Below are positions 6,558-38,657 of a stretch of DNA of 43,581 bases, in pieces. A model generated the notes under the pieces. It saw nothing but the letters and a program-made list of their open reading frames with translations, did no database searches and was not told the DNA's origin. How positions within the stretch are numbered: the stretch's first letter is position 1; each line of letters starts with the position of its first letter. Source of the stretch: an uncultured Candidatus Binatia bacterium (lineage in GTDB: Bacteria > Desulfobacterota > Binatia > HRBIN30); assembly GCA_964528465.1 (NCBI GenBank), contig CAZGSN010000667.1, forward strand, positions 1-43,581, written 5' to 3'. Position numbers and translations under genes: made by a program.

Positions 6558-7310
6558 CTAGCCGGCACGGATTCCGGCGATGGCGTAGGCGATGTTGCCG
6601 ACGGCGCGGCATTCGGCGACGTGGTCGGTGGTGGCGGTGATGAGTACGCGCACGTCTTCTACCGTACGCAGGGCGGCAACCTCGTCGCGCCGGTGCAAGA
6701 AACGCAGGTAGTGGTCGCCCCAGCGTTGGTTGAGCACCAGTGTGTTGAGGTAGAGGCGGCCGCGCGGCAGCAACAGGCTACGCACGGCTCGTAGCATTGC
6801 TCCACCATCCTCGAACAAGTGCAGCATGCCCATCGACAGCACCGTCGCGAAGCTTGCGGCTTGGAAGGGGAGATCGTGCAAGTCGGCCTGAATCAGAACC
6901 ACGTTGGCAGGAATGCTTCCGTTGCCTTGCTGAAGTCGTGCCCGCGCGCGGCGCAGCATCTCGAGGGAGTGATCCATCGCAATCACCGGCCGCTGCGCTT
7001 GCCGATACACCTCCGCGGTAAACAGCATCGAGCCGCAACCGGCGTCGAGATACGGGCCGCTTGTAGCCGATCGCAAGGCCGCGTCGGCGAAGGCCGTGTA
7101 GTCGCGAAGATCGGACCCCCACATCCAGCGGTTGTAAAGTCGACTGCCGATGAGGCGATCGTAAATTCCCGCCAGGCGGTCGTAGTGCTGCGCCTCCTCG
7201 GTCTCAGGCAATGCCGAATACAGCCCGGGCTCTACCTCGCGCAGCTCTCTCCCCTTCAGGAGCCTCTGTGTGGCAATCTCGTAAGCCGAAGTGCTGTGCT
7301 CGCTTGCCAA
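6558..7310 (-). CDS. Class I SAM-dependent methyltransferase
   Basis: 250 aa. Motif I is YLDAGCGSMLF. It is followed by VVLIQADLHDLPF and FATVLSMGMLHLFEDG (Methyltransf_11/25-like). The TTG start (7308-7310) directly abuts the TAG stop (7311-7313) of the upstream GT-C/NHL gene. Confidence 0.8.
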   Translation of the reverse strand: MASEHSTSAYEIATQRLLKGRELREVEPGLYSALPETEEAQHYDRLAGIYDRLIGSRLYNRWMWGSDLRDYTAFADAALRSATSGPYLDAGCGSMLFTAEVYRQAQRPVIAMDHSLEMLRRARARLQQGNGSIPANVVLIQADLHDLPFQAASFATVLSMGMLHLFEDGGAMLRAVRSLLLPRGRLYLNTLVLNQRWGDHYLRFLHRRDEVAALRTVEDVRVLITATTDHVAECRAVGNIAYAIAGIRAG

Positions 7311-9953
7311 CTACTTCTCCGTGGGAATGCGCACGAGCTTGTTTTCGAGTTCGGCGACAATCACCTCGTGTCGCTGCGCGTCGAAGGCAATGCCCATCGG
7401 TGTGCGGAACTTCCCTTGCTCTGCGGTGATGGTGCGCTTGAGCTTGCCGTCCACCGTGTAGGCGCGGACTTCCTTCGCAAGCGGAACGGTGACCCAGATC
7501 GTACCGTCGGGAGCAATAGTGAGATGAGGCTCCGACCACGCGCCGCCCTGCCAGCCTTCCACCGCAAACTGCTTGAGAGGCTTGCCGTCGGGGGTAAACA
7601 CTTGCACACGGCCGTTGCCGTTGTCGCAGACGTAAACATTCCCCTTACCATCCACAGCAATGCCGACGGGCTCCAGGAAGGTGCCGACGGTGCCGCCTTT
7701 GCTGCCCCAGTCTGCCTGCCGTGCCCCTTGCGGTGAGAAACGCAGGACGCGGTTGTTCCCGGTGTCGGTGACGTAAACAGTTCCATCGCTTGCCACCGCC
7801 ACACCACGCGGGCCAAAGAGGCCGCCGCCGAATTGGCGCAGGAACTTGCCGTCTTCGTTGAATACCTGAATGCGTTGGTTCCAGGTGTCGGCAACATGGA
7901 TGGAGCCGTCTGGTCCAACGGCGACGTCACAAGGTTCCTTGAAGAATCCGACTTGGTCTCCTTGCGTTCCCCACTGTGCCAGCGGACGGAGGTCGGGCGA
8001 AAATTGCTGGATGCGATGATTGCCAAAGTCTGCAACGAGAATGTTCCCCTTGCCGTCGATGGAGATGCCACGCGGTTGGTGCAGCATGCCCAACGGCTCG
8101 CTGGCAGTGGGCATCTGATCGGGGGCACTAGCTCCCGGCGCCCGTCCCAGAGACTGTACGTCGGTTTGCGAATTGACCGGCAGCGTCGGCCACGACGGCT
8201 CTCTAGGCACCGCTCTCACATCCACTTCCTCGACGCGCAAGAGCTTGGCGATCAAAACACCGTCGTCATTTTCGGGATAGCGCACGTCTTCGAGCTTGTG
8301 ATTCGGAAAGCGCTGCAGCAAGGCGTTCAGGGCCGATGGGCCACGGTCGGTGAGCGGGATGATGAAAGCGGCGCCTTTGCCCTCGGGAGGTGCAATGTTG
8401 GCGCGGTTGACGAGGCTGATGTTTTCTACCCAGGTGTAGTTGCGACGCTCGGGATGCCCGACGCCCTGGTACGAAAGATAGGTGATGGTGTCGCGCGGCC
8501 AATTCGCACCGCCGACCCAAATGGCGTAGTCGGGCACCAAGCTCTTCACTAGGCGGCCGACCCTTGCGGTCTCCGGGTAGTATCCCCATACCGGACGCCG
8601 GTTGGGTCCGAGGAACTGCTGGTAGCTGTCGACGATGGCCGTGCCACACGTGAGCACCGCCAACGCTACTCCCAACCACACGCCGGCGCCCGGCAGCAAA
8701 CGCCGCAGTTGCTGGCGAAAGAACTCCACGCCGAGACCGGACATGAAAAACACAAACGGCATGGTGCCGATGCAGCGGTTCATGTTGGGGCGACTGATCC
8801 AGCCGGGAACCAACCCAAGCCCAAAGCCCAACAGCAGGAACTGCGCCCGCTCGTCGCGAATCTTGAGCACGCACCACAGCAGGCCGAAGACGAAGAACAC
8901 CGAGGCGGCGAGTTCCAAGCCGGGCTCACGCACGAAAAAGTCATCGCCGTTACCAGCCAAATTGAAGAGCAAGAAACTCTGGCGCACGGCCTGCCACATC
9001 TCGGCTTGCCCGCGTAGGGCGACAGCTCGGCTGTTGAAGATGCTCCAGTGCTTCACGGCAAACCAAGCCAGCGGCGCAATGGCAATTGCGAAGGCGACCG
9101 CACCGGCAAGCATGGCCCAGCCATAGCGGCGCAGAAAGCCGCGCAGCTTCCAGGATTGCAGGATCACCAGCGGTAGCCATGCCAAGAACAAGCCGGGCAA
9201 GACGCGGGAGGCGTTGTACGTATTGAGCGTGGCCGCGAGAAAGATGCCGGCGAGAGCAAAGTCCAAGGCCTTGGCGCGACGCATGCCGCGCACGAAGAAG
9301 CAGCAGGTGAGCACGGTGAAGAACGGCTGAAAATCCGAACGCCAGCCGGTACGGCTGAAGATCAAATGCCATCCGGAGCTGGCCAACAGCGTGGTGGCAA
9401 TCAGCGCTAGGCCCGAGCCGAAGCTGTTACGCGCCCACCAGTAGAAGAAGGGTAGGGTGAGGAACCCAGCCACCATGGACGGCGCTTCGATCGCCAACTG
9501 TGTGGGGCCGAGAAAATATTGCCCGACGGCTTTGAAGTAGAAGGTAAAGGTCTCACGCCCCCAGGCTTCATTGGCGTAAGCGATGTACGGCTCGCCGTTG
9601 AGAATGCGAATTCCATACATCGCTTCCCAGGCCGCATCGTGATTGATGCCCGGCGGGAACTCGCCGATGTTGTAGACAACGAAAAAGAGGCCGATCACGA
9701 GCACCGCGGCGAAGCCGATCTGTTCCTGAGCCGGCGATAACTCGACCGCGCCAGGGGAGGGCAGCTCCCGGGTGTCGTCGCTCAAGAAAAAGAGCAGGAC
9801 GAAACCGACCGCAGCCGTCAGCCACGCCCAAGCCGCTTGTTCGGGAAAGTACCTCCAAGACAGCCAATACTGCCCAATAAGCCCTGCCGCTGCCGTGGCG
9901 AGCAGCAGCAGCAGGCGTATCCAGCGTCGTGGTACGATAATGTCACTTGCCAT
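7311..9953 (-). CDS. Polytopic GT-C-fold (GT39/PMT_2/ArnT-like) membrane glycosyltransferase-like protein fused to a C-terminal six-bladed NHL-repeat propeller
   Basis: The N-terminal ~600 aa are strongly hydrophobic with many TM helices. The first-loop acidic motif is EFPPGINHDAAWEAMYG. The C-terminus (about nt 7314-8090) carries NHL blades ADFGNHRIQQF, ADTWNQRIQVF, TDTGNNRVLRF and CDNGNGRVQVF. The ATG 9953 start overlaps the upstream gene stop (9943-9945) by 11 nt; the track ORF uses GTG 10013. Confidence 0.8.
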   Translation of the reverse strand: MASDIIVPRRWIRLLLLLATAAAGLIGQYWLSWRYFPEQAAWAWLTAAVGFVLLFFLSDDTRELPSPGAVELSPAQEQIGFAAVLVIGLFFVVYNIGEFPPGINHDAAWEAMYGIRILNGEPYIAYANEAWGRETFTFYFKAVGQYFLGPTQLAIEAPSMVAGFLTLPFFYWWARNSFGSGLALIATTLLASSGWHLIFSRTGWRSDFQPFFTVLTCCFFVRGMRRAKALDFALAGIFLAATLNTYNASRVLPGLFLAWLPLVILQSWKLRGFLRRYGWAMLAGAVAFAIAIAPLAWFAVKHWSIFNSRAVALRGQAEMWQAVRQSFLLFNLAGNGDDFFVREPGLELAASVFFVFGLLWCVLKIRDERAQFLLLGFGLGLVPGWISRPNMNRCIGTMPFVFFMSGLGVEFFRQQLRRLLPGAGVWLGVALAVLTCGTAIVDSYQQFLGPNRRPVWGYYPETARVGRLVKSLVPDYAIWVGGANWPRDTITYLSYQGVGHPERRNYTWVENISLVNRANIAPPEGKGAAFIIPLTDRGPSALNALLQRFPNHKLEDVRYPENDDGVLIAKLLRVEEVDVRAVPREPSWPTLPVNSQTDVQSLGRAPGASAPDQMPTASEPLGMLHQPRGISIDGKGNILVADFGNHRIQQFSPDLRPLAQWGTQGDQVGFFKEPCDVAVGPDGSIHVADTWNQRIQVFNEDGKFLRQFGGGLFGPRGVAVASDGTVYVTDTGNNRVLRFSPQGARQADWGSKGGTVGTFLEPVGIAVDGKGNVYVCDNGNGRVQVFTPDGKPLKQFAVEGWQGGAWSEPHLTIAPDGTIWVTVPLAKEVRAYTVDGKLKRTITAEQGKFRTPMGIAFDAQRHEVIVAELENKLVRIPTEK

Positions 9954-12900
9954 AGGGGATGCGTAAGATGCGATGGTCGAGGTCGCTGACGGCAAGGTCA
10001 TCGTTGGCCACACTGTAGGCTACGGCCATCGGCGTCTCGAAGATGACGCCGGGGATGGTCTGCGATCGGATGGTGCGCAGGAGAGTACCGCTACGATCGT
10101 AGCCGCGAATCTCCTTCATGGTCGGTACCGTCACCCACAGTGTCCCCGCCTTGTCGACGGTGATGTGCGGCTCGGAGAATACTTTCGCTTCCCAACCGGA
10201 CACCGCGAACGAGCCCTGAAGCTGGCCGTCCCGCGAAAAGATCTGCACGCGAGCGTTGACGTTGTCGCAAACGAAAACGGTGCCGTCCTTGTCCACGGCA
10301 ATTCCCGTCGGCTCTTGGAACTTGCCCGGTGCCGTACCCTTGCCTCCCCACTCGGCTTCCTTCTCGCCGCGTGCCGACAGGCGCACGATGCGGTTGTTGC
10401 CGGTGTCGGCAACGAAGATGGATCCCTGGCTATCGACTGTGACACCGCGTGGCCCGTAGAAACCAAGCGCAGCCTCGCGCAGATACTTGCCTTCCTTGTC
10501 GAAGATCTGGATGCGCTGGTTCCAGGTATCGGCAACCACGACCTCGCCATTGGGTGCCACGGCAACATCACCCGGCTCATTGAACTGCCCGGGCAGCTCG
10601 CCTTTGCGGCCCCAGCCGCGCACGAACTTGAGATCCTTGTCCAACTCCTGGATGCGATGGTTGCCGAAGTCCGCGACCAGGATGTTGCCATCTGCCTTCA
10701 CGGCCACGCCGCGTGGCTGCTGTACTTGCCCCGGTGCATCCTGTGGCAGTGGTGCTTCCGCAGCTCCGGGAATGTCGGGAATCTCTTCGACCGTGGTGAG
10801 CGGCATGCCACCGGTAAACGTATCGTTGACGGCGAAGATGGTGACACCCGGGTTCTGGTACACAGGGGTCAGCAGGTCGGTCCACTCCCGGAAGCGCTCC
10901 AAATTGCCGCCCGCATAGGTGCGCCGTTCGAGGGCACCAACGAACACAAAGGCAACGTGGTAGCGCTGGAAAATGGAGCTGGCGATGTCCTTGCTCTCGG
11001 TGGTGTAGGCCAGTTGGATGTCGGCCTTGCGTTGATTGATCTGGTTCCACGGATGAGCGCGTTGGAACACATGGTACGACCACCCCAACACCGTCGGCAG
11101 ACCGGTGTTCATCGAGACGCGGGTGAACTCCTGATACGAATCGCCATGCGCTTCCATGAGCACCGGAATGCCACGCACGTTGCGGTTCAACCATTCATAG
11201 GCGGCAGCTTCGTCGGGGGCGCGCAGCGGCAAGTAGGCGCGGCCGTTGAGTGTCGGCCGTGGCGTTACCACGCGGTTGGTCTGCAAGATTCCGTATGCTG
11301 CCGTGCCGGCGGTGAACAGGCCGACGCCAACCACCACTACCATCGCCAACTGCCAGGCGCGCCGCAGCCACTTGGACAGCAGTGAGGCCTGCCACAGGGC
11401 TTGCGCGGTTACCGCCGCAGCCAGCGCGAACATGAACCAAGCCTCCAGGTAAAACTTGAAGATGGTGTTCATGCGGTCCCAGACGTAGACCAGGTCGGTA
11501 CCTGCCGTTACCGCAAAGGCAAACGTCGCGAAGGCCAGCGGCAAGCGCCAGCGGCGTTCCGTCTTGGGACTGAGGACGACCTGAAATCCTAGTAGGAAAA
11601 GAATCAACGCAAAGGCGCGGGTGGAAATGAACAGGCTCGCTGCCATGGCTGCCAGCCCGAGCACGGCAATGCCAATCCGCAGTGGACCAAGCGTGCCGTC
11701 GGCGCGGCGCAACTCGCGTACCCAGGAGGCAAACAGGAACGGCACCAAGGCACAGAAGAAGACGCCCCATATGGTGAGGAAATCCAGCGGTTGGACGAGC
11801 TTGTCCGGACCCAAAACCTCCCAACCGATGTTGCGCTCCGGCGGGTTGAAGTTTTGCCAGAAGGGCATGAACAGGAAGTACGCGCCGGCAGCGATGAGCA
11901 CGGTGGGGAACAAGACGCGCCCGAGCAGGCCGCCGATGAAACTAAAGAAGCCGGGATGCGATCCTTCGGTAAGCCACACCACGCCAAGCACGAACGGGAA
12001 GAAGAGGACGTAGGTCGGCGTGCTCCAGGCGTTGGTCACGGTGATGGTTCCAAGACACAACGACAGGAGGGCAAACACCGCCAAACGAGCCCCGGCGGGC
12101 ACGTACTCGTAACGGTCGAGGATCGTGTCGCGAATCCACAACACGGTGAGGGTGATGAAAGTCACGGTGATGGGCATCACCATCATGTGTGCGTGCAGGT
12201 CGGCGAACAGCAGGCTCCAGAACGGATACTCGTTGATGGTGTCGCGGATGACGCGCGAGGTCGCCCAGAAGTAATCGAAATTCATGGTCGGATGCGGCCC
12301 CATGAGTTCGCGCGGGCCAGAGAGGTTGCCGATCAAGGTCACGAACAACGCCGCAATGGCGCCGGTCGACCAGCGTTGGGTCAGCGCCGCCCCGGCAGCA
12401 AACGCCGCAACCGTGGTAAGTCCGCCGATCAAGCCGATGCCGATATTGAAGAGGTACCCGGTTTCAATGTTGAGCAGCTTGCCCATCGCCGCAATCGAGT
12501 AGTAGCCGAAGTAGGAGTACTGCAGCGGTGAGCCGGCAAACCACGGCTCCGGTGGCGGCAGGCTGGTGGCGCGCGTAATGGCGTTGAGGAAGGAGAAGTC
12601 CATGGGCTTCTCGCCCCAATAGATCTCCGGGTTGAAGGAGCGGATGGCAAGGAAGAACAAGAAGGCGCCCCAAAACACGATCTGGGTGGCCACCGCCTCG
12701 CTCACCGGTGTACGCTCGCGATCCGGGCGCCGCCAGGCGCGCACGCCACACAGGATCATGAAGCCAGCCACGAGCAACAGCGTGTCGCGCGTGAACTTGG
12801 CCATGTCGAGGCTAACGACGAGCCACGACAGGTAGGAGAACAACAGAATTCCCAGCGTCTTGGAGATGGCCAGCGTTCCCGGTCCGGGCAGGCGCCGCTT

Positions 12901-14739: not shown

Positions 14740-14842
14740 GTTTTCTTCTCAGGCCTCGTGAATAGGTTGTGTGCGCTGCGAGCCCAGCGCCGGCAGTGGT
14801 TGAGCTTGAAATGTGGCGGCACGGGGCTCCGATCTTGTGCAT

Positions 14843-14935
14843 GAATTCCTTCGCAAGGCAGAGCCTTGCCGGAATAAGTTCCCAGGCAGAGCCTGGGAAC
14901 CAGAATGCAGAATTCCTCGTTCCCAGGCTCTGCCC
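14843..14935. repeat. Tandem short hairpin units sharing the core AGGC-nnn-GCCT
   Basis: GCAAGGC-aga-GCCTTGC at 14853-14869. GTTCCCAGGC-aga-GCCTGGGAAC at 14878-14900 (perfect 10-bp stem). The preceding GAATTCCT(T/C)CG motif occurs at 14843 and 14911. Translations give FPGRAWEP and AEPGNEEF type spurious peptides. Confidence 0.65.
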
Positions 14936-15142
14936 TTAGCCTTACCCACAAATCGGCCGGCTGGACACCGACAGCAGAACGGAAAGGCAGCAAGGATCGG
15001 TATCCTCTCCCGTGCATCTCCTCAGCGGGGGAGAGGACACCGTATGGCTGGCGATGGAGCTTTTTTCGACCGAAAAGCCTTTCGGGGTACCGGTGTCCAG
15101 CACCCCGATTTGTGGGTAACGTAAAGGGCTCTGCCTGGGAAC
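14919..15142. repeat. 224-bp nested inverted-repeat element (MITE-like or structured-RNA-like)
   Basis: The arm at 14919-14970 (gttcccaggctctgcccttagccttacccacaaatcggccggctggacaccg) pairs with the reverse complement of 15091-15142 (gttcccaggcagagccctttacgttacccacaaatcggggtgctggacaccg), about 44 of 52 matches by eye. The core contains a 14-bp stem at 14998-15011 / 15029-15042 (cggtatcctctccc / gggagaggacaccg, 1 mismatch). It also contains a 6-bp hairpin at 15070-15085 (ccgaaa-agcc-tttcgg). Confidence 0.6.
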
Positions 15143-15155
15143 GAACGCAGGGTCT

Positions 15156-15172
15156 GCGAGGCTCAGCCTCGC
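15156..15172. repeat. Short hairpin GCGAGGC-tca-GCCTCGC of the same AGGC-nnn-GCCT family
   Basis: Perfect 7-bp stem with a 3-nt loop, read directly from the sequence. It lies 14 nt after the right arm of the 224-bp element. Confidence 0.55.
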
Positions 15173-15385
15173 GACCGGCAGCGGGGATTGATGCACAGTC
15201 CCTCCGTCCCGTGCGCCTGACATCATCGCTGCCTGACGCTGCAGCGGACAGAGTCCGATGCCACCGAGAAGTCCTCCAACCTTGAAAATGAACCGCTACT
15301 CTTCCGCCATCAGTGTTGCTTCGATGCATTGCGCTCGTACCTTGCCTTAGCTCAATCGGCGGACTGTGATTCCCATATCCCCGAC

Positions 15386-17491
15386 TCACCGTTGGTAGAT
15401 CGTGGTTCCGCCCTGTTTGAAGGCAACCTCCAAAGAGCCGAACTTCTGCAGCCCCGCGGAGGGATACTCCTTACGCTCGACCTCGCCAACGATGACGTAC
15501 TTGACGCTGTGGGCATCGAGTAGGGAAGTAACTTCTTCCAGTGTCGTGGCGTTGTAGATGCGTTTGACCTCTTCCTGGCGTTTGCCGACATCGGGATGAT
15601 TGCTACGCCACAAGCCTTCATGGTTTCCCCAACCCATCAGGGTGGGTAGGCCGGTGTTGCTCGACATGCGTGCAAAGTACGAATACGGGTTGCCGGTCGC
15701 TTCCAAGATCACCGGAAGGCCCTGGACGTTGGCGCGCAGCCATTCCACGGCGGCAAAGTCGTCGCGATGATCGCGACGCATGTAGTCGTTGCCGTCGAGA
15801 GAGCGCGGGGCGAATGGATGCGTCAACCGCGTCACGGTAACCCCTACCGGATACACAGCCGCGGCCAGACATAGGGCGCCGACCAGCGTGCCGGCGGTGG
15901 TTCTTACGTTGCTCGGCAAGCCACGGTCGGTGAGCAAGCGCATCAAGCACCACGGTCCCGCAATGGAAAGCAAGAACCAGGCTTGCAGGTAGAGTTTGAA
16001 CACTGTGTTCATGCGGTAGAGGCGATCGCCGTAAGGGTCGCGGATGAACACCAATTCACACGCCAGCAAGGCGGCGCATCCGGCGACCACCACCAGCAGC
16101 GGCCCGCGGTCTTCTTCCTCGTCACTGCCGTAGGCGGCAACCAAGGCAGCGGTCAGTATCGCTAGGAGAATCGGGAAGACGGCGTTCCCGGCCATGAGGG
16201 CGATTACCACGGCCAATACGACCAGCCCCAACAAGAGCTGTCGTTGCTCCGGCTTTGCGGAGATGTGAGGGCCGACACGCAACATCAGATAGAGCGCCGG
16301 CGCGATCAACAGGCCACCGAACACGGTCATGAACTCTGCCAGAGAAGTGGTGGCGAACTTGAAACCGACGCCGCCGCCGGGGGCTTGGAAGTTGAGATAG
16401 AAAGGAAGGAACAGAACGTAGCTGCCGACCAGCGCCCCAACCACACCCAGTACAACGCCGATGCGCTCGCGCGTGAATAGTGGGGTGAGAGGTAGGTGCC
16501 GGTGCAGCAGTAAGAAGGTCGTCATCGCCCCCACCGGCAATTCCCAGGTGCTGATTGCCACCATGGCGCCGAGGACAAAGGTAATGACAAACCACGGCCA
16601 CAATCCTTTGTAAGAGCTGGTATCGCCGCGCTCGCGTTCGGGATCGAGGAGCAGTCCGAGCAGCAGGATCATCACCGGCATCACCTGGAAGTGCGGGTGC
16701 AGATCCCCATGAATGGCGGTGAAGTAGGGAAACTCGTTGATGGTGGAGTCGCCACCGACAATGCGCGTCGAGCGGAAGTAGTTGAATGCCGTGAGGCTGC
16801 CCGACTCGAGCAGTTGTAGAAAGCCATCGAGATTGCCGAACAAGATGCCCATGGCTCCGGTGAGCAGTGCAAACGAAAGCTTGCGTGTGAGCACCATGCC
16901 AACGGCGACGAGTTCGCTGAACACCAGTCCGCCGAGGGTTGCGACGCACAGGTTGTAAGCGATCGGCGCGGCGATTGCGGTCAAGCGCGCCAAGTTGGCC
17001 AGGATCAAGTATCCGAAGTAGTAGTAGTTGAAGACCTTGCCGGCCATCCACGGATCTTGCGGCGGCATCACCTCGGTACGAATCAAGGTGTTGAAGAAGG
17101 CAAAGTCCATGTACTTCTCTTGGTCGGTGATCTGCGGCAGCAGGGAACGTTGCCAAGCGAAGAAGGCAAAGCCGAGGGTCCACAGCACGTCTGTACGCAC
17201 GATGGTGCGCCAGCCATCGCTAGCCAGCCAAGGGAGCAACGCGTCGCGGCGGCGCAGCAGCAGCACGCCGTTGAGCCCAGCGAAAAAAAGCAGCGACAAC
17301 CACAAGGAAGACGAGTACCCAATCCCCAGGTGTCCGAGCAGCCAGGCATCGTAGGTGACGACCAGCAAGGCAACGATCTTGCCGAAGGCATAGCCGTAGT
17401 CGGCGCGCTTCGAGAAGAGAACACTGGTTAACGGAAGTGCAATGAGGCCCAAGCCCTCGAGCACCAACCACCACACGACAAGCTGGCCCAT
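15386..17491 (-). CDS. DUF2298 (Chlor_Arch_YYY-type) polytopic membrane protein, function unknown (GT-C-like)
   Basis: DQEKYMDFAFFNTLIRTEVMPPQDPWMAGKVFNYYYFGYLI, with the YYYFG motif at nt 17009-17029. It is highly hydrophobic throughout. The C-terminal soluble part LPVILEATGNPYSYFARMSSNTGLPTLMGWGNHE is paralogous to the central module of the 1598-aa protein. The start is ambiguous: ATG 17491 (MGQLVVWWLVLEGLG...) or TTG 17530 (track). Confidence 0.85.
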   Translation of the reverse strand: MGQLVVWWLVLEGLGLIALPLTSVLFSKRADYGYAFGKIVALLVVTYDAWLLGHLGIGYSSSLWLSLLFFAGLNGVLLLRRRDALLPWLASDGWRTIVRTDVLWTLGFAFFAWQRSLLPQITDQEKYMDFAFFNTLIRTEVMPPQDPWMAGKVFNYYYFGYLILANLARLTAIAAPIAYNLCVATLGGLVFSELVAVGMVLTRKLSFALLTGAMGILFGNLDGFLQLLESGSLTAFNYFRSTRIVGGDSTINEFPYFTAIHGDLHPHFQVMPVMILLLGLLLDPERERGDTSSYKGLWPWFVITFVLGAMVAISTWELPVGAMTTFLLLHRHLPLTPLFTRERIGVVLGVVGALVGSYVLFLPFYLNFQAPGGGVGFKFATTSLAEFMTVFGGLLIAPALYLMLRVGPHISAKPEQRQLLLGLVVLAVVIALMAGNAVFPILLAILTAALVAAYGSDEEEDRGPLLVVVAGCAALLACELVFIRDPYGDRLYRMNTVFKLYLQAWFLLSIAGPWCLMRLLTDRGLPSNVRTTAGTLVGALCLAAAVYPVGVTVTRLTHPFAPRSLDGNDYMRRDHRDDFAAVEWLRANVQGLPVILEATGNPYSYFARMSSNTGLPTLMGWGNHEGLWRSNHPDVGKRQEEVKRIYNATTLEEVTSLLDAHSVKYVIVGEVERKEYPSAGLQKFGSLEVAFKQGGTTIYQR

Positions 17492-19199: not shown

Positions 19200-19474
19200 C
19201 CTGCACCTTTGCTGTCCGCCGGGTCTGCGATCTATTCCGAGCTGGGTGGCTGATTGGCGCGAGACAGTTAGTGCCATCCGCCTCCGGCAGCAAGTGCCAC
19301 CTATGCGCAGGTGCGCGTCCCTCTTATCGATGAGACCCTACATCCGCGAGCGCCGGGCTGAGAGAAGGCTTCGCTACGTGATTGTTGCCGGTCCTGCTGC
19401 GTGTACTAGGCCGCCGCCGCGTGTCGCCATGCGACCGCATTGGCGCCTACCGCCAGCCAAGAGCCGCAAACGAC

Positions 19475-31775: not shown

Positions 31776-34700
31776 CTAGAACGCTAGAGGGAAGACCAGG
31801 TTGACCAAGAAGAAGTGGCGGTTGTAGGGGTCGGCCCAGAAGCCACCGGCGCTGGTGGTCAGCACGGCAATCTCTTCGATGGGGAAGTTGAGCGTCCCTT
31901 CGATGCCACCGGCGATACGGCTTCCCTCGGCGTCTTCGAAGAAGTCCGAGTCGACACCCGAGATCCACTGGCCTCCCACTTTGCCCGTCACCAAGAAAGT
32001 GGCGTCATCCAATGTGTCCGGGAAGAACGGGCCAGTGAAATCGAGGCGCAGCAAAGCCTGCACAAACGCGTCGGGGCTGAAATAGCCGCCGCCGGTGCGG
32101 CGCTCGTTGACGGCGGCGATGAGGTCCGCATCGGAGCTGGAAGAGCCACGCACGGGCTCGCTCAAATCCTTGTCGTAGTGGAAGAAAGCAAGCTCGACGC
32201 CAGGGCGAATCTGGTTGTCGTAGTTGCGCAGCTCAAATGTCCGCCCTACTCCGAGGAAGCCGTCAAACTTCTCGTTGTCCGGGATGCGAATGCCTTGCAA
32301 GGTGCTGTAAGCGAGTTCGAGCACACCATCGATTAGGGCTGGCGTGGTGAAGCCGATGCGTCCGCCGAAGCGGTCTTGAATCACCTTACCGATGAAGGTG
32401 TCGCTGTTGCCGGAGACCAGCTTCTGCCCGCGGAAGCTCAGCATCGATTCCATTACGGGTTGGCGCTCGTAGAACGGAGTCAGCGTCAACCATGGAGCTG
32501 GCTTGAGATCGAGTTGAGCAAAGCCTGTGAGATAGGGGCGACGCGGGAAGCCCCACGGGGTTCCGCCAACACCACCACTCAGGACAATGGCGTCTGTCCC
32601 CAGCGCCAAGCCGTTCAATGTCGCCATGCCGGAGACCCCGGCGTCGCGCTTGTCGCCGTTGTCGACCAAGGTTGGTTCGGCAGTCAGCCGGAAGCGCGTA
32701 TTGAGCGCCGCAGGCAGATCAACGAACATTGGAAAGCGATAAATCGCAAACTGGTCGGCCCGCCAGTCGGCCACGGCACTGAGGAAGTCGTAGCGAAAGC
32801 CAAGCCCCACTTTGACGGCTTGCTTTCTCGCCAAGTCACGAGCCAAGCGCTCCGCGCGCAGGCGTGCTTCCGGGCTCAAGGCTTTGACCGGCGGCGCCTC
32901 CACCTCTTCTGGGATCGTCTCGTACTGAATGGCCGAAAGATCGGAATAGCGCGGCACACCCTGTGTCGATGGATCATGCCTGCGTTCCCATTCCAGTCGC
33001 ACCGGCGGCAGCGAGTCTTCATAAACAACCGGAGCCGGAACCTGCGAGCGCGCTTGACGGCGTGCGGGCGTCGCCAAGCGTGGCACGGGCGTGGTCTCGA
33101 TGCGCGGTTCTTGCCAACCCCGTGGTGTGGGGACGCGCGTCGGCACCGCGGTAGCTTTCCCGCTACGCCCCTTGGCACGCACATCCCGCATGATGCGTTC
33201 GAAGCTTGGGAGGTCTTCCGCGATCTGAGCTTCCGCAACATCCCTCTCACGGTGGGCAGCCCAAGCCCGTAGAGCCTCAACAGCCCCGCCAGAGAACATC
33301 GCCGCTGCGGCTGGCGCAGCATCGTTCATGGAGTCCGTGGCGGCGGCGGCAAGCGGCTGCGAGGTCAACCGCGCCGTGGCGCGACTTCCCTGCCAGCGCC
33401 GTGGTGGCAGTGCATCGACCGGAGCCGGCTTGGCGCGTAATGTCCCTTGCGGCAACTTGAGCGGTGGCAGAATCGAATCGACGACAGCGCCACTGCTGGC
33501 GTAGCCCGAGCCCGGCTGCGGCGGCAGGCCGTAGACACCCACCCCGCCGCGACTCCCCGCCTCCTCGAGAATTGCCGAAGCATCTCCATCGCGCCCCATG
33601 TCGTGGTACATTTCAGCCAAAGCAAGGCCCAGCTCAGGATCTTTACTGGCCTCGTACTGGTCTTCCAAAATATCGAGTGCCTCACGCGTGTTACCGCTGC
33701 CGCGCAGGGCGTACGCCAGGCCTAGGCGCACGTCCCCATCTTCCGGCGCCAAGGCCTGTGCGCGAGAGAAGAACTGCTCGGCCTCCACGTACTGCTTGGT
33801 TTGCAGATAGAGGAAGCCAATGGATTTCAACGTGTCCACGTCGTTCGGGTCGCTGCGATAGTCTTGCGCCAAGAGAAGGTAGACCTGATCCAAGCGCCCC
33901 TCGCGCGTCAGCCGCTCGCGGTCGATCCGGTCCTGCGCGCGGCGCACGTCGCGAGCCAGCTCCGCCGCCGTTTGCGCTCCGAGTGTACGCTGGTCATTCG
34001 CAATGGCCTGGCGTGCATCGGCATAGCGACCGAGCTTCGAAAGTGCGCGAATACGCGCTGCCTGTAGGCGTGCGGAAGAACGGTTCAATGCCAAACCCTG
34101 CTCGGCATAGGTCAGGGCAAGCGTGTCGGCACCAGTTTCCAAGGTGACTTCCGAGAGCCCTGCCCACACATCGGGATCGCGCGGATTGCGCTCGCGCAAC
34201 TGCTCCATGAGATCGCGCGCATCGGCAAAGCGTCCGGCTTCGATGAGCTGACGGGCGTATTCCATATCGCGATGGAAGGCGATGCGGTTCCAGGTTTCCG
34301 CCGACACCTCGTACCCAGGGATGGTATCCAATCGGCGATAGGTGGCCTCAGCAGCTTGCCAGTCCCCCACGCCTTCGTAGGCTCCGGCGATCCCTTGCAA
34401 AGAGCCCGGATCATCGGGATTGGCAGCAAGCACGGCACGGTGCGTGTCGATGGCATCCTGGAACTGCCCCTGCTTGGAATAGACACCGGCAATCACCTTG
34501 AGGGAATCCGCGTCTTCCGGATCCAGGGCCAGAGCCTCGCGCGCGGCAAAGAACGCTTCGTTCGTGCGTCCGGAATCAAGTAAGGCGCCAGCCTGGGCTC
34601 GGCGCAGATTGGCACGCTCGCGATTCGCCGCCTCCGGGTGCGCGGCGCTGTAAGCGGTGAGTGCCTGTTCGGCTTCGCTGTAACGCTTCATCGCCGTCAG

Positions 34701-37700
34701 GGCGCGCACCTGCCCCGCATACGCCTCCGCCGAGGCATCCGGGGCCTCGGCCAGGCGGCGGTAGCTGCTCAAGGCCAACGAATGGTCCCCGACCAACTCT
34801 GCGGCTCGCGCCTCGTCGTAGGCGAAATCTCCGCGATAAGGGTCGAGTTCGCGCCCGCGCTTGGCAAGTTGCAAGGCAGAGCGCGCCGACATAGTGGAAG
34901 GATCTTCCCGCCACTGGGCTAGCCGTTCTTGGATCGATAAGGTCTCGGAAATCTTCTGTCCTTGCGCCGCATCGGGTAGTTGACGGGCATAGACACGCGC
35001 CCGCTCCCAATCCTGGCCAGCCAAGGCAATCTGCGCACGCATCGACAGAGCCTCGGCGTTATTCGGGTCGCGCTCGAGAACCTGCTCAATCGCAGCATCC
35101 GCCGCCTCCAGTTCCTGTGCCGAAAGATGGCGACCAGCGATGGCCAGCAAGAGGTTCGTATTACCACGCAGCGCCTCGGGATTACTTGGGTACTCGTCGA
35201 GAACCGAGTCGTACAGTGCCCGCGCCTGTTCGAGATCTCCATTCGAAAAATAGGCACCGGCAAGCGCATTGGTGACGAATGCATCATGCGGCCGGCGAGC
35301 CCGGGCAGCCTCATACGCGGCAATGGCGAGGCCGTACTCCTGTTGCTGCGAGTACAATCCGCCCAGGGCCAACTGTGCGTTGACGTTCTCTGGATCTTGA
35401 TCGAGGGCCTGGTGCACGAGGTGGATGGCCTCGTCGAGTTTCCCCGCCCGTTGCAGCGCCGCCGCTTCGGCCAAGGTGTAGCCGACATCGCGCGCACGGC
35501 CTGGCTCGGCAGGAAGCTCGGGGGCTGGTGGCGACGACTCAACCACAACCGCGGGGGGAGCCTTCTCCTTGGGCACAGACTTCCCCGCTTTTTGCTTACG
35601 GCCTTTGCTCGGCTTCTCGGTGACATCGACGACCTTGGCAACCTCGATGGCCGCCTCGCTAGGCGCGTTTGCCATCGCCGTTGGTCCTTCGCGTAGCTTG
35701 CGATAGGCGCTCAGAGCGCGATCGCTTTCTCCCAAGCGCTCGAGGGCCTGGGCACGCACCAGCATCAGATCGTCGCGGCGCGGGGCAACGCTGAGACCAC
35801 GTTCCGCTAGCGACAGCACCTCGCGAGGGTTGGCGTTGTCCGGATCATTGCGCCACGGTTGCAATTGTCGCTCGACATCGACGAGCTGACGCAAGCGATT
35901 CTTTTCGTCGCCGTTGGGCAAGCGTTCGAGCGCAAGTTGCGCCGATTCGTAATCGCCCGAGGTCATGCTCATTTCGATCAAGCCCTTTACCGACTGAGCG
36001 CTCCCCCCTTTCACCTGCAGAGCTTGAGCAACGTAACGCCGCGTAGCGTCCTGCTCACCCCGGCCGAGAGCATCGGATGCCATGGTGGCAAGCACGTCGA
36101 CTTGCCCATTGGCAGCGTCCACATCGTCGGGGTCGGCTTTGCCGGCCGCTTGAAAGGCATGCAAGGCATCAGGGAGTTGGCGTGCGGCGAAATAAGAACC
36201 GGCCAAGCCGTTCCACAGTTTGGCATCGTTGGGGGCCAGCTTGAGTGCGTTGCGATACGAGTCTACCGATTCCTTGTAGTTGCCGGCGCGCTTGTGCTCC
36301 TCGGCTTCGACCGACAGCAAGGCCACGCGCACAGCGTTCTCTTCTCCTGGGAACAAGCGCTGAAATTCTTCGAAGCCGGCGCGCGCATTCTTCTCGTCGC
36401 CTTGGGCAATATAGACCCGCACGGGACCAAGATACGCTTCCCGGAGGTCGGGCTGCTGCGAACGTAGGGCCATGTAGAGAGGCAACGCCTCGTTGCCTCG
36501 GCCACTCCGTTCCAACAACTGCGCCAGGCGCAGGCGGTAATCGACGCGTTCCGGAGCTTGGGCAACGGCTTTGCGCAGCAAGGCTTCGCTGCTTTCGTCA
36601 CTAGCGCGTTCGATCTTGGTTTCGAGCTGCTGCGACTTGCGCTGCTGGGCGATTTCCTTGCGCAGGCGGTCGTAGTCGCGGCGGGCTCGTCGTTTTAGGC
36701 TCGGCAGTAACGACTCGGCGCGGCTGTATTCGCCACGTGCGGCATAAACCGCGGCCAAGCCTTTGGTTGCCTCCAGGTGCTGCGGTTTGAGTTTGAGAGC
36801 AGCCTGGTAGTCTTGCTCCGCCGCCTCCGGGTTACCTTGGGCAAAAGCAATACCGCCGCGTAGAGCCAACAGGTCGGCACGTTGGTCGACGAGTGTACCC
36901 GCCTGCTCGAGGGTGGCTGCGGCTGCGTCTAAATTCCCCGCCTTCATTTGCGCCGAAGCCAACGCCGCTACCGCGGCGGCCGTCTTGTTGGCCGACGCAT
37001 CCAACGTAACCGGCGCAGGCTTGGGTGCGATAAGCTTGGGGAGATTTTCCGGCACAACGACTGGAGCCGCGGGCTGCAACGGCAAAGGGGAAACGGCTAC
37101 TGCCGCGGCCTTCTTGCCTGCTTGTCCTTGTTTCTTGACCAGGGACCCCTGGATATCGGCATACTCCTTCGCCAAAGCTGGGTCAGAGCTCAGCTCCAAG
37201 GCACGCTCATATTCTGGGAGCGCTGCCTCGCGGCGGCCACGATTCACTTCGAGGCGAGCAATCGTCACGGCTAGGTCCGGACGCCGCACCGACATCTCGC
37301 GCAATCGCTGAATGACCCGATCTACATCGTCGTAGTTGCGGGTCATGTTGGCTGTGCGTCCAAGCCCAGCCAGAGCATCGGCATCGTCGGGATGCGCCTC
37401 GACGTAGCTCTTGAAATGGCCATAGGCAGCAGCGTGCTTGCCGCCGGCTTCTTCGGCCAAGGCGACAAGCTTTAGATCTTCGCCTTGCAGCGCCACACCA
37501 CCAGCCAGGGCTCGTGCAAAGTGATCCTGTGCTTCCTTGGACTGACCGTTCCAGGCAAGGGAGCGTGCATACAGCAGGCGCCGATCGGCGTCTTGGGGGC
37601 GTGCTTGTACGATTTCCGCCAGTTGCGGGATGGCTTCGCGAATACGGCTTTGGCTGATGAGCAGGTCTGCCAACTGACTACGTCGCGCCACGTCATCCGG

Positions 37701-38126
37701 CCGCTGCTCCAAGTAAGCCTTCAGGATTTCGGTGGCACGCGGCCACCCTTCTTTGGATTGCGAGAGTAGGTCGACGAGGCGCCGCTGGGCGTGAACATCC
37801 GGTTGGCGTTTGAGAGCGGCCTCGAACGCAGCGACTGCCCGTTCGCGCTCGCCCAACTGCATGTATGCTTCGCCGAGGCCGCTGTAAGACGAGGCCGGTG
37901 CGTTGGGTTGAAGCGTGAGTTTTTCGTAGGCATCGCGCGCTTCGCGCCATCTACCTGACTGCAAGTAGAAACGTGCTACGGCCGCCTCGTCTTCAGCGCG
38001 TGATGTCGCCTGCGCCGACGCAGCGTACGTCCACAGTGGGGAGCAAACCAGCGCTAGGGAAAGGGAGAGAGCCTTGATGGCGCGCATGCGACTATCCATC
38101 CGTTCGAAAATTGAACTCACCGCCAT
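31776..38126 (-). CDS. Giant (~2116 aa) TPR-repeat protein with C-terminal BcsC-like outer-membrane beta-barrel (exopolysaccharide-export-porin-like)
   Basis: Signal peptide MAVSSIFERMDSRMRAIKALSLSLALVCSPLWTYAASAQA. ATG 38126 is preceded by aatGGAGGgaggtg (SD, 6-nt spacer). TPR-like helical repeats span about nt 33560-38040. A Pro/Ala/Arg-rich linker spans about 32820-33560. The C-terminal ~347 aa has alternating beta-strand patterning, the motif GGGYFSPDAF (nt 32073-32093; compare BcsC GGYFSPQ) and a terminal ...LVNLVFPLAF, an aromatic OMP C-terminus. Confidence 0.8.
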   Translation of the reverse strand: MAVSSIFERMDSRMRAIKALSLSLALVCSPLWTYAASAQATSRAEDEAAVARFYLQSGRWREARDAYEKLTLQPNAPASSYSGLGEAYMQLGERERAVAAFEAALKRQPDVHAQRRLVDLLSQSKEGWPRATEILKAYLEQRPDDVARRSQLADLLISQSRIREAIPQLAEIVQARPQDADRRLLYARSLAWNGQSKEAQDHFARALAGGVALQGEDLKLVALAEEAGGKHAAAYGHFKSYVEAHPDDADALAGLGRTANMTRNYDDVDRVIQRLREMSVRRPDLAVTIARLEVNRGRREAALPEYERALELSSDPALAKEYADIQGSLVKKQGQAGKKAAAVAVSPLPLQPAAPVVVPENLPKLIAPKPAPVTLDASANKTAAAVAALASAQMKAGNLDAAAATLEQAGTLVDQRADLLALRGGIAFAQGNPEAAEQDYQAALKLKPQHLEATKGLAAVYAARGEYSRAESLLPSLKRRARRDYDRLRKEIAQQRKSQQLETKIERASDESSEALLRKAVAQAPERVDYRLRLAQLLERSGRGNEALPLYMALRSQQPDLREAYLGPVRVYIAQGDEKNARAGFEEFQRLFPGEENAVRVALLSVEAEEHKRAGNYKESVDSYRNALKLAPNDAKLWNGLAGSYFAARQLPDALHAFQAAGKADPDDVDAANGQVDVLATMASDALGRGEQDATRRYVAQALQVKGGSAQSVKGLIEMSMTSGDYESAQLALERLPNGDEKNRLRQLVDVERQLQPWRNDPDNANPREVLSLAERGLSVAPRRDDLMLVRAQALERLGESDRALSAYRKLREGPTAMANAPSEAAIEVAKVVDVTEKPSKGRKQKAGKSVPKEKAPPAVVVESSPPAPELPAEPGRARDVGYTLAEAAALQRAGKLDEAIHLVHQALDQDPENVNAQLALGGLYSQQQEYGLAIAAYEAARARRPHDAFVTNALAGAYFSNGDLEQARALYDSVLDEYPSNPEALRGNTNLLLAIAGRHLSAQELEAADAAIEQVLERDPNNAEALSMRAQIALAGQDWERARVYARQLPDAAQGQKISETLSIQERLAQWREDPSTMSARSALQLAKRGRELDPYRGDFAYDEARAAELVGDHSLALSSYRRLAEAPDASAEAYAGQVRALTAMKRYSEAEQALTAYSAAHPEAANRERANLRRAQAGALLDSGRTNEAFFAAREALALDPEDADSLKVIAGVYSKQGQFQDAIDTHRAVLAANPDDPGSLQGIAGAYEGVGDWQAAEATYRRLDTIPGYEVSAETWNRIAFHRDMEYARQLIEAGRFADARDLMEQLRERNPRDPDVWAGLSEVTLETGADTLALTYAEQGLALNRSSARLQAARIRALSKLGRYADARQAIANDQRTLGAQTAAELARDVRRAQDRIDRERLTREGRLDQVYLLLAQDYRSDPNDVDTLKSIGFLYLQTKQYVEAEQFFSRAQALAPEDGDVRLGLAYALRGSGNTREALDILEDQYEASKDPELGLALAEMYHDMGRDGDASAILEEAGSRGGVGVYGLPPQPGSGYASSGAVVDSILPPLKLPQGTLRAKPAPVDALPPRRWQGSRATARLTSQPLAAAATDSMNDAAPAAAAMFSGGAVEALRAWAAHRERDVAEAQIAEDLPSFERIMRDVRAKGRSGKATAVPTRVPTPRGWQEPRIETTPVPRLATPARRQARSQVPAPVVYEDSLPPVRLEWERRHDPSTQGVPRYSDLSAIQYETIPEEVEAPPVKALSPEARLRAERLARDLARKQAVKVGLGFRYDFLSAVADWRADQFAIYRFPMFVDLPAALNTRFRLTAEPTLVDNGDKRDAGVSGMATLNGLALGTDAIVLSGGVGGTPWGFPRRPYLTGFAQLDLKPAPWLTLTPFYERQPVMESMLSFRGQKLVSGNSDTFIGKVIQDRFGGRIGFTTPALIDGVLELAYSTLQGIRIPDNEKFDGFLGVGRTFELRNYDNQIRPGVELAFFHYDKDLSEPVRGSSSSDADLIAAVNERRTGGGYFSPDAFVQALLRLDFTGPFFPDTLDDATFLVTGKVGGQWISGVDSDFFEDAEGSRIAGGIEGTLNFPIEEIAVLTTSAGGFWADPYNRHFFLVNLVFPLAF

Positions 38127-38138
38127 CACCTCCCTCCA

Positions 38139-38156
38139 TTCGTCTACGTAGACGAA
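38139..38156. promoter_or_regulatory. Perfect 18-bp palindrome TTCGTCTACGTAGACGAA immediately 5' of the TPR/BcsC-like gene SD
   Basis: Verified base by base as self-complementary. It sits in the 66-nt spacer between the lipoprotein stop (38193-38195) and ATG 38126. A neighbouring imperfect GC-rich hairpin lies at about 38161-38195. Confidence 0.45.
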
Positions 38157-38192
38157 CAGCAGGCACGGGCACTGCCGCCCCTGCGTGCCCTG

Positions 38193-38657
38193 CTACTGGT
38201 CCAGGTTCGGGACACTCACGCTCAGGCTGGCGAGATCCGCAAACGCGGACTGGCGCGCGCGTGACGTACCGTCCACCTTGATTTCGATCACAAGCTGCTT
38301 GCGACCCGGCTCGGTGAGATTGGCCGAGACCGTAAAGAAGCCACGTGCGTTGGTATACGGAATCGTCGCGGGGATAGTACCATCAATGGTCTGGTTCGAC
38401 GTCGCATCGCCCATCTGGCCGCGAAAGGCTGCCCCGAGGGTACCTTCAATAGACACAACCACCTGATGATTGGTGCTACGCGTCGGCGTTGGGTTCTGGT
38501 TGGGCGGCGTTACGCTAGGTGTGGGAGAGACGGTGAAGGGTGGCGTTGGAGTGGGCGGATTATAGCCGTCGTCGTCATCCTCATCCGGCCCACAGCCCGG
38601 CATGAACGCACCGAAGATCAAGAGAATTAAGGAGAGATACAGCCTCATCATCCACAC
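38193..38657 (-). CDS. Small lipoprotein with acidic and Pro/Thr-rich linker and ~95-aa beta-rich domain
   Basis: MWMMRLYLSLILLIFGAFMPGCGPDEDDDDGYNPPTPTPPFTVSPTPSVTPP has a signal peptide and a lipobox-like FMPGC (Cys22). Alternative ATG starts are at 38651 and 38648. It lies directly upstream of, and co-oriented with, the TPR/BcsC-like gene. Confidence 0.7.
   Translation of the reverse strand: MWMMRLYLSLILLIFGAFMPGCGPDEDDDDGYNPPTPTPPFTVSPTPSVTPPNQNPTPTRSTNHQVVVSIEGTLGAAFRGQMGDATSNQTIDGTIPATIPYTNARGFFTVSANLTEPGRKQLVIEIKVDGTSRARQSAFADLASLSVSVPNLDQ

Follow-up and report, generated by a model that had tools for sequence, protein, structure and literature searches.

A conserved Binatia operon of GT-C glycosyltransferases with DUF2298 modules of predicted STT3/AftA-like fold, next to a giant Pro/Thr-linker protein and a bcsC gene

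In three-component glycosylation systems, a sugar generally passes from a nucleotide sugar to a polyprenyl-phosphate sugar and from there to its acceptor through a GT-C glycosyltransferase. A pairing of TIGR03662 with PMT-like proteins is reportedly recorded for archaea and Chloroflexi in the descriptions of the models TIGR03662 and TIGR03663. The pgf cluster of Streptococcus mutans encodes GT-C genes together with the Ser/Thr-rich adhesins that they glycosylate, the Ser/Thr-rich disordered regions of these adhesins being the glycosylation sites (PMC12041528). DUF2298 (Chlor_Arch_YYY) was found in the literature searched only in a gene list and in a DUF database; in a Chloroflexi gene list it adjoins PMT2/PA14 (PMC8756737). 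Here we analyze a complete NCBI contig of 43,581 bp from a metagenome-assembled genome (MAG) of the Candidatus Binatia type (hereafter the window, meaning this whole stretch), which encodes several very large membrane proteins of the GT-C type. Its conserved unit is a Binatia operon of periplasm-facing GT-C enzymes, consisting of a stand-alone DUF2298 protein, a PMT-like–DUF2298–NHL fusion, a PMT_2-like–NHL protein and an S-adenosylmethionine (SAM)-dependent methyltransferase.

A first-pass annotation of the window had read six GT-C-like modules in it, four GT39/PMT/ArnT-like and two DUF2298, accompanied by NHL propellers twice, PA14-like modules twice and one degenerate propeller; beside them it had listed a methyltransferase, a giant protein with three Pro/Thr linkers, and a lipoprotein with a tetratricopeptide repeat (TPR)/BcsC-type barrel. 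The map of open reading frames (ORFs) has every gene where that annotation had placed it, and all of these components are present (Table 1). The six modules are supported by Pfam, NCBIfam, profile comparisons and two AlphaFold models: in Foldseek searches the models of the stand-alone DUF2298 protein and of an 820-aa protein match solved GT-C enzymes, as had been expected of them, and the other modules are recognized by Pfam PMT/PMT_2 and by hhalign. The fused domains are likewise borne out (NHL at E values of 1e-35 to 1e-38; PA14 at 24.6 bits and in a model; hhalign). Family searches among the larger ORFs of the window gave no GT2, GT4, Wzx/Wzy, ABC exporter or nucleotide-sugar gene, in agreement with the earlier reading, which had noted the same types of genes as absent, GT4 not being among those it named.

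The core operon and its DUF2298 family

Around DUF2298 homologs that are 58-84% identical to that of the window (loci L001, L003, L005/L006, L007), the same string of genes recurs: DUF2298, usually a GT4 gene, a methyltransferase, a PMT–DUF2298–NHL protein of ~1600 aa and a PMT_2–NHL protein of ~880 aa. The core operon is kept at these loci as well as in L008 and L037. Orthologs of the fusion are 52-83% identical at five Binatia loci and 32% identical in L037, and orthologs of the 880-aa protein (40-75% identity) follow the fusion gene in L001, L003, L005, L007 and L008. The GT4 gene lies within the operon in L001, L003, L007 and L008. The methyltransferase, absent from L001, stands either before the fusion or after the last gene; it is within the operon in L003, L007 and L008, and in L005/L006 its orthologs (72% identical) hold the same position as in the window. 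In the window its start abuts the stop of the upstream 880-aa gene, which in turn overlaps the fusion gene by 11 nt. None of the other window genes was found within 10 kb of the core operon in L001, L003, L005/L006 and L007. Where homologs carry a source label, which few do, they come from Candidatus Binatia or 'Deltaproteobacteria' MAGs.

The triple fusion matches PMT_2 (60 bits), PMT (38 bits), DUF2298 (293 bits), TIGR03662 (468 bits) and NHL (E 7e-35), and the profile of its N-terminal module matches yeast Pmt1 (6p25_A, E 2e-4). In the 880-aa protein the PMT_2 score (23.9 bits) is under the Pfam cut-off of 26.1, and its orthologs in L008 and L009 have a PMT_2 match that bears no weak or faint mark. 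The only NCBIfam match to the membrane domains of both core PMT-like modules is TIGR03663 ('flippase activity-associated protein Agl23'), at 26 and 29.6 bits for a cut-off of 126. W32-D33 and H39-P40-D41-E42-R43 are invariant in the fusion, as is N104-H105-D106 after the first membrane span of the 880-aa family. Each family thus has invariant acidic residues behind a membrane span, in a first long loop that the positive-inside rule predicts to be periplasmic: D41-E42 (fusion), H105-D106 (880-aa protein), E168-E169 (820-aa family) and E125/D129 (DUF2298).

The stand-alone DUF2298 protein scores 315 bits with DUF2298 and 517 bits with TIGR03662, whose cut-off is 300; by its profile score it is a member of TIGR03662. 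A long version beginning at a TTG codon was set aside, the true start giving 701 aa as in the homologs, of which there are 741 at E ≤ 1e-10. An AlphaFold2 model built on 47 sequences (predicted local distance difference test, pLDDT, 89.6; predicted template-modeling score, pTM, 0.92) matches in Foldseek, all with probability 1.0, AftA (3e-8), human STT3 (1e-7), DPY19 (3e-7), yeast STT3 (9e-7), AglB (7e-6) and PglB (1e-4); Pmt4 and EmbB come after PglB, and EmbA/B/C are among the matches of both models, DUF2298 and 820-aa. The soluble domain at the C-terminus has a match of its own, to the C-terminal globular domain of an AglB (3vu0, target TM 0.48). By sequence, the DUF2298 profile gave zero matches among solved structures, and a Pfam search at E ≤ 5 returned DUF2298 itself only, STT3 being absent. 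As modeled, the kinship of DUF2298 to GT66 and GT85 is at the level of the fold only, and we do not assign the family to GT66.

The invariant residues of the family include E125-K126 and D129, which start a surface helix in a long loop placed on the periplasmic side by the same rule, T250-I251-N252-E253, D263-L264-H265-x-H267, R462, D485 and G620-W621-x-x-H624. The YYYxG motif is present as NYYYFGY, with Y156, Y158 and G160 invariant and Y157 nearly so. The oligosaccharyltransferase motifs TIXE, DXD and WWDYG have been described for AglB, in which the second DXD motif (residues 161-163) precedes TIXE (357-360) by ~200 residues (PMC8342417). The invariant DUF2298 stretches TINE and HGDLHPH (residues 250-267) and GWxxHxxxWR (620-629) recall TIXE, D-x-H and WWDYG of AglB/PglB. 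To equate TINE with the oligosaccharyltransferase TIXE was considered and set aside; D-x-H comes after TINE in the same loop, an order opposite to that of AglB. The resemblance may reflect convergence or a rearranged active site.

The position occupied by GT4 in relatives is taken in the window by a non-coding spacer of 650 bp. It contains an inverted repeat of 54 nt, whose arms lie at 14917-14970 and 15091-15144, along with the 16-mer GTTCCCAGGC[AGAG/TCTG]CC, present four times here and absent from the rest of the contig. A tblastn search of the spacer found no GT4 remnant. The element looks like a small palindromic insertion, similar to a miniature inverted-repeat transposable element (MITE) or a repetitive extragenic palindromic (REP) sequence, and the usual GT4 gene is replaced by this small palindromic insert in this genome. 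In L005/L006 the same slot is a gap of 82 bp. An ORF of 217 aa covering the spacer (14736-15389) was rejected as a gene; it is Arg-rich, matches no family and is probably spurious.

The accessory GT-C/PA14 enzymes and the giant Pro/Thr-linker protein

The 820-aa protein matches PA14 at 24.6 bits (cut-off 24) and PMT_2 at 21.2 bits, below the cut-off. Its AlphaFold2 model, based on 41 homologs (pLDDT 92, pTM 0.89), matches STT3 (1e-7), AglB, EmbB, Pmt4, PglB and ArnT in the PDB, all with a Foldseek probability of 1.0, and the C-terminal domain of the model matches sugar-binding PA14 domains, including that of MpAFP. The family profile also matches the PA14 protein 6qdi by sequence (E 1e-6); it found no GT-C enzyme among solved structures, this relationship being visible only in the predicted fold. 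The first long loop carries E168-E169, and E169, R211, R230 and R256 are invariant in the family. The neighboring 1146-aa protein matches PMT_2 at 40 bits, and its residues 170-815 align to the 820-aa family profile, the PA14-like part included, over 584 columns with 97.7% probability (hhalign); its C-terminus aligns to the NHL profile (87%, E 4e-6).

The neighborhoods of 820-aa homologs were examined at L008-L010, at 27 metagenome loci (L014-L040) and at L041-L043. In L008 the homolog is directly 3' of the core operon and on the same strand. The distant locus L037 has a single co-directional string made of the fusion, a UDP-GlcNAc 2-epimerase, a GT2, a PMT_2 protein and an 820-like protein, with a PMT_2–NHL protein and a methyltransferase near this string. 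GT2 genes adjoin the homologs in L008, L009, L021, L023, L024, L026 and L037, and the best matches of their products, all sub-threshold, are to polyprenyl-phosphate glycosyltransferases; for the small GT2 proteins in L021, L023, L024 and L026 the best NCBIfam matches, polyprenyl- or dolichyl-phosphate enzymes, are AglJ, PpgS, Dol-P-hexose transferase and ArnC. A methyltransferase of 296-304 aa adjoins the 820-aa homolog in L010, L014, L027, L028, L031, L036 and L043, and homologs of the 1146-aa protein are near 820-family genes in L020, L031 and L033. On the whole the synteny around the 820-aa gene is loose. A DUF2298 neighbor was also looked for beside a PMT_2–PA14–NHL protein from Anaerolineales (Chloroflexi), and none was found. 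In L037, which is the most complete of the related islands, a type I phosphodiesterase and a 920-aa sulfatase-domain (LtaS/EptA-like) membrane protein are encoded between the GT-C genes (11780-16511), which hints at phospho-substituent transfer alongside glycosylation in that island.

The giant protein matches Laminin_G_3 twice (E 3e-43) and NHL weakly, its propeller segment aligning to an NHL profile; the translation has a LIAC lipobox and three Pro/Thr-rich linkers. Its homologs adjoin 820-type genes in at least three arrangements: in L043 the two are divergent, as in the window, in L025 they are also divergent and the giant gene is present at least twice, and in L010/L014 they converge. All of these homologs have Pro/Thr linkers, of up to 180 residues. 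L043 is the closest relative: its DUF2298 is 94% and its 820-aa gene 80% identical to those of the window, and the giant proteins share 32-37% identity, that of L043 (3646-7938) being 285 aa shorter and having another domain order. This divergence suggests that the position is constant and that the surface gene occupying it is fast-evolving, hypervariable or exchanged like a cassette; the product of this gene is a candidate acceptor or partner of the GT-C/PA14 enzymes.

The lipoprotein–BcsC pair and the flanking genes

The TPR barrel protein has many TPR family matches, a signal peptide and the C-terminus ...VFPLAF; a terminal Phe, as in ...PLAF, is typical of outer-membrane proteins. An exhaustive comparison of its C-terminal 518 residues with 1.84 billion proteins gave five representative clusters at E<1e-30, followed by a few weaker matches (E ~1e-5) in proteins of 1000-1450 aa. 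A pattern scan of species-representative genomes found three loci, in two Binatia MAGs and one unclassified bacterial MAG, and the flanks of bcsC were readable at two of them (L011 and L013). At both, a homolog of the window lipoprotein is directly upstream of bcsC (53% identical in L011, 33% in L013), and within one or two small ORFs the barrel gene is followed by a Cellulose_synt GT2 and BcsB (321 bits); further along are a GH8 gene in L011 and Wza- and Wzc-like genes in L013. The BcsC proteins of the window and L011 are 73% identical. The 1792-aa L011 ortholog lacks several hundred residues that the window BcsC has in its TPR region (~330-880), among them a low-complexity stretch rich in Lys, Pro and Ala.

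No homolog of the window GT-C proteins was found in the bcsC flanks of L011 and L013, and no BcsC homolog in ~40 loci centered on DUF2298 or 820-aa homologs. At the nucleotide level, similarity to L011 runs precisely as far as the stop codon of bcsC, and that to L043 just past the stop codon of the 820-aa gene, on which bcsC converges over a gap of 241 bp. On these sequence comparisons, the TPR barrel is a true BcsC which, with its lipoprotein, is detached from bcsA/bcsB on this contig and is part of cellulose secretion; we exclude it from the GT-C system because its orthologs are in bcs operons and never near GT-C genes. The placement of bcsC beside GT-C genes is peculiar to this contig. The first-pass annotation had asked whether DUF2298, GT39-NHL and BcsC are conserved as a trio: DUF2298 and PMT–NHL are co-localized in every Binatia genome examined, and BcsC is never with them. 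Of the single envelope system that it had envisaged, the GT-C modules, the core operon and the giant protein beside 820-type genes thus stand, and the BcsC barrel falls outside.

On the ORF map, a minus-strand series runs from the giant protein through the SEC-C protein, DUF2298, the spacer, the 1598-aa fusion, the 880-aa protein and the methyltransferase to a MazE/AbrB-like gene; the two accessory GT-C genes form a divergent plus-strand pair, the larger one coming first, and the lipoprotein and the TPR barrel a convergent minus-strand pair (38651→31776). The G+C content is ~60% over the whole window without a compositional break, and an Rfam scan of the window had zero matches. For the M16 peptidase genes, a tie to the island was not seen at other loci. 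Toxin-antitoxin-type genes lie beside the GT-C operon both in the window (the MazE/AbrB-like gene) and in relatives (L003, 3422-3968; L007, 4681-4923; L043, 2515-3188; ParE/MazE, ParD, PhdYeFM/PIN), and these repeated flanking genes suggest that the operon lies in a recombination-prone, island-like region. In L043 the PhdYeFM/PIN pair occupies the place of the SEC-C gene of the window; a homolog of the SEC-C protein was found in none of the related loci inspected. The 1439-aa ATPase has weak matches to BrxC/PglY and SspC defense ATPases and ends ~300 bp from the contig end; no other defense genes are in view.

Table 1. Coordinates and main characters of the features of the window
Feature	Position	Strand	Remarks
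Two tandem M16 (insulinase/pitrilysin-type) peptidase genes	1899-5038		Upstream of the island
MazE/AbrB-like gene	6116-6568	minus	
SAM-dependent methyltransferase	6558..7310	minus	Methyltransf_25 58.6 bits, also Methyltransf_11/31; last gene of the core operon
PMT_2-like GT-C with C-terminal NHL beta-propeller, 880 aa	7311..9953	minus	Four NHL repeats, E 4e-38
Triple fusion, PMT-like GT-C + DUF2298 GT-C + NHL propeller, 1598 aa	9943..14739	minus	
650-bp spacer with palindromic element	14740..15385		Position of the GT4 gene in relatives
Stand-alone DUF2298 / Chlor_Arch_YYY, 701 aa	15386..17491	minus	GT-C fold (model), C-terminal domain similar to STT3/AglB; opens the core operon
508-aa cytoplasmic protein	17751-19277	minus	SEC-C metal-binding motif at N-terminus; between DUF2298 and giant gene
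Giant secreted protein or lipoprotein, ~1715 aa	19721..24868 (ORF to 24901)	minus	Two LamG, propeller, three Pro/Thr linkers, Cys-containing C-terminal domain
GT-C (PMT_2) + PA14-like module + degenerate NHL-type propeller, ~1143 aa	25328..28759 (1146-aa ORF from 25319)	plus	
GT-C + PA14 carbohydrate-binding domain, 820 aa	29072..31534	plus	
BcsC, TPR array + outer-membrane beta-barrel	31776..38087 (ORF to 38129)	minus	BCSC_C 51.5 bits, cut-off 23.5
Small lipoprotein with Pro/Thr tether	38193..38651 (ORF to 38657)	minus	Lipobox MPGC; upstream partner of BcsC
BrxC/PglY-like ATPase, 1439 aa	38966→43285	plus	P-loop (DUF6079, AAA_22); divergent

Proposed function and comparison with known glycosylation systems

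Our preferred explanation, to which we give an even chance of being right, is that the window is a composite of three units, and that the GT-C enzymes of the first two glycosylate in the periplasm from polyprenyl-phosphate sugars, with Pro/Thr-rich surface proteins as their likeliest acceptor. The first unit would be the Binatia-conserved GT-C operon; the second, accessory, would comprise the giant LamG/propeller surface protein and, divergent from it, the two paralogous GT-C enzymes with PA14 (and propeller) domains; and the third would be the lipoprotein–BcsC pair, separated from its bcsA/bcsB partners. From the domains, folds, acidic residues and gene neighborhoods observed here, with three to six GT-C modules facing the periplasm, we infer donors, flipping, acceptor and chemistry as follows. 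In the cytoplasm, an AglJ/PpgS/ArnC-type GT2 together with a GT4 would load sugars, some of them methylated, onto polyprenyl phosphate; the genes of these enzymes would be elsewhere in this genome, but lie within the homologous islands of relatives. The lipid-linked sugars would then be flipped across the membrane and, once in the periplasm, serve as donors for the GT-C modules, whose fused NHL or PA14 domains would bind the acceptor. For the accessory module, this acceptor would most likely be Ser/Thr of the Pro/Thr-rich linkers in the adjacent giant protein and in similar lipoproteins, which we favor because giant proteins recur adjacent to these enzymes, protein glycosyltransferases dominate the structural matches and the pgf cluster of S. 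mutans provides a precedent. DUF2298 would be an STT3/AftA-like transferase with an acceptor other than the N-X-S/T sequon. A bolder version of this scheme, which we consider quite doubtful, would have DUF2298 as a new class of STT3-fold transferase which, with GT4, the methyltransferase and PMT-like extenders or flippases, forms a lipid-linked-oligosaccharide pathway of archaeal/eukaryotic style in a diderm; the glycan would be built on a polyprenyl carrier, lengthened in the periplasm and passed en bloc to Pro/Thr-rich surface proteins, its attachment site there differing from N-X-S/T.

The first-pass annotation had also held that the combination of genes in the window matched no pathway that could be named. 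This view is weakened: GT4, AglJ/PpgS/ArnC-like GT2 and UDP-GlcNAc 2-epimerase genes are found in related islands, and since the 'missing' donor-synthesis genes are present there, the familiar route from nucleotide sugar via polyprenyl-phosphate sugar to GT-C presents itself. With BcsC assigned to bcs, the combination also loses what had made it seem unclassifiable, namely a porin of the synthase type that has no synthase.

Several observations weigh against our explanation. Both a donor-synthesis gene and a flippase are absent from the window. DUF2298 has no WWDYG motif, and the order of its TINE and DLH differs from that of the second DXD and TIXE in AglB. The giant gene is absent from the core operon loci L001, L003, L005 and L007, and in L041/L042 an 80%-identical 816-aa homolog of the 820-aa protein stands alone among housekeeping genes. 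Pro/Thr tethers seem common in the lipoproteins of this lineage, including the one associated with BcsC, and are thus not specific evidence. Moreover, the sugar-binding fold of PA14, the AftA/Emb matches and the presence of GT4 in the operons of most relatives would suit a glycan or glycolipid as acceptor no less than a protein. AftA and Emb make cell-wall arabinan. In the main alternative, in our estimation somewhat unlikely, the GT-C enzymes would assemble or modify a glycan or glycolipid of the envelope, comparable to the lipomannan, lipoarabinomannan (LAM) or arabinogalactan of mycobacteria or to a side-branch of lipopolysaccharide (LPS) or exopolysaccharide; GT4 would then provide a lipid-linked primer on the cytoplasmic side, its extension in the periplasm would fall to the GT-C enzymes, and the PA14/NHL domains would hold the chain as carbohydrate-binding modules (CBMs), as the C-terminal CBMs of EmbC and AftD hold their growing chain. 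The top rank of AftA among the structural matches of DUF2298, the EmbA/B/C matches of both models, the PA14-like C-terminal domain of the 820-aa protein, the GT4 genes in four operons (L001, L003, L007, L008), the serial GT-C enzymes accompanied by sulfatase/LtaS-type and phosphodiesterase genes in L037, and the common use of three-component systems to modify glycans are all consistent with this alternative. However, most of the strong structural matches are protein glycosyltransferases (STT3, AglB, PglB, DPY19, Pmt4), the C-terminal domain of DUF2298 is similar to the globular domain with which AglB binds peptides, 820-type genes repeatedly have giant Pro/Thr-linker proteins next to them, and no export or ligation genes of the Wzx/Wzy/ABC/WaaL type were seen in the inspected loci.

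The two other alternatives concern the path of the sugar or polymer across the envelope. The PMT-like N-terminal modules could be translocators of lipid-linked sugars that feed the fused or adjacent DUF2298 transferase, similar to archaeal Agl23; purified Agl23 from Haloarcula translocates a lipid-linked oligosaccharide in liposomes (PMC11182771). This role, compatible with the glycosylation scheme preferred here, would make sense of the fusion, with the PMT-like module as flippase and DUF2298 as transferase; the operon encodes no further flippase candidate, and TIGR03663 is the sole NCBIfam match to the two membrane domains concerned. We consider it improbable nonetheless: the TIGR03663 scores are far under the cut-off, the modules retain, just behind their first membrane span, an invariant Asp-Glu that is the PMT-type catalytic motif, and the profile matches Pmt1. 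That the whole ~32 kb is one envelope pathway, in which a GT-C polymer or the glycosylated giant protein leaves through the BcsC-like barrel, has the physical proximity of the genes in this contig as its sole support and appears very improbable, given that the lipoprotein–barrel pair directly precedes bcsA-like and bcsB genes in two further Binatia genomes, that none of the ~40 loci centered on the GT-C genes has a BcsC homolog, and that similarity breaks at the two gene ends mentioned above (L011, L043).

When compared with the bacterial cellulose synthase operon (bcsA, bcsB, bcsZ, bcsC), the window barrel scores above the BCSC_C threshold and its orthologs precede bcsA-like, bcsB and GH8 genes; it differs in that bcsC and its lipoprotein are away from bcsA/bcsB, the barrel is very divergent and the TPR region is unusually long (~1700 aa). 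The 'BcsC porin without a synthase' is a false lead, now removed, being a rearranged piece of an ordinary cellulose operon. With the three-component systems (GtrABC, ArnC/ArnEF/ArnT, CsbB/GtcA/YfhO), the window shares GT-C enzymes of the PMT_2/ArnT type, and related islands have adjacent GT2 genes of the AglJ/PpgS/ArnC type. In contrast to these systems, the window has no GT2 and no recognizable flippase, a GtrA- or ArnE-type flippase having been seen in none of the inspected loci; where these systems have one GT-C module, it has as many as six, of which two belong to DUF2298; its modules are fused to NHL or PA14; and two GT-C modules are joined in one polypeptide of 1598 aa. As for GT39 PMT enzymes, a Pfam PMT/PMT_2 match together with the DE motif of loop 1 is present only in the N-terminal module of the fusion (D41-E42). 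No match to MIR or PMT_4TMC was found in any window protein, and NHL, PA14 or DUF2298 follow the PMT-like module instead; because MIR and PMT_4TMC are lacking, the window PMT-like modules are, by their domain content, GT-C enzymes near GT39/GT83 and outside GT39 itself.

DUF2298 shares its predicted fold with STT3/AglB/PglB (GT66) and mycobacterial AftA (GT85), and has acidic and His invariants in its predicted periplasmic loops; it differs from STT3/AglB/PglB by GWxxH in the place of WWDYG, by another order of the motifs and by extra N-terminal helices. Both window DUF2298 modules are paired with PMT-like proteins, as in the TIGR03662/TIGR03663 partnership, whereas their partners are not members of TIGR03663, the lineage is Binatia, and NHL fusions, GT4 and a methyltransferase are added. 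The clustering of GT-C genes with large surface proteins is likewise reminiscent of S. mutans Pgf (PgfS GT-A, PgfM1/PgfM2 GT-C; Cnm/CnaB/CbpA) and of actinobacterial Ppm1/Pmt, but the host here is a diderm, the families are PMT_2/DUF2298 rather than YfhO, PA14 or NHL domains are present and the link to a substrate comes from synteny alone. New here are the STT3/AftA-like model of DUF2298, the conserved operon of Binatia, in which two GT-C modules are fused in one protein and NHL propellers are present, and the repeated association with giant Pro/Thr-linker proteins. DUF2298 thereby gains a confident GT-C fold in the model, a conserved operon setting in Binatia and a list of residues that are invariant. 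If the link to the giant protein is true, the pattern of GT-C enzymes encoded beside a glycosylated adhesin, known in streptococci and actinobacteria, would reach an uncultured diderm phylum.

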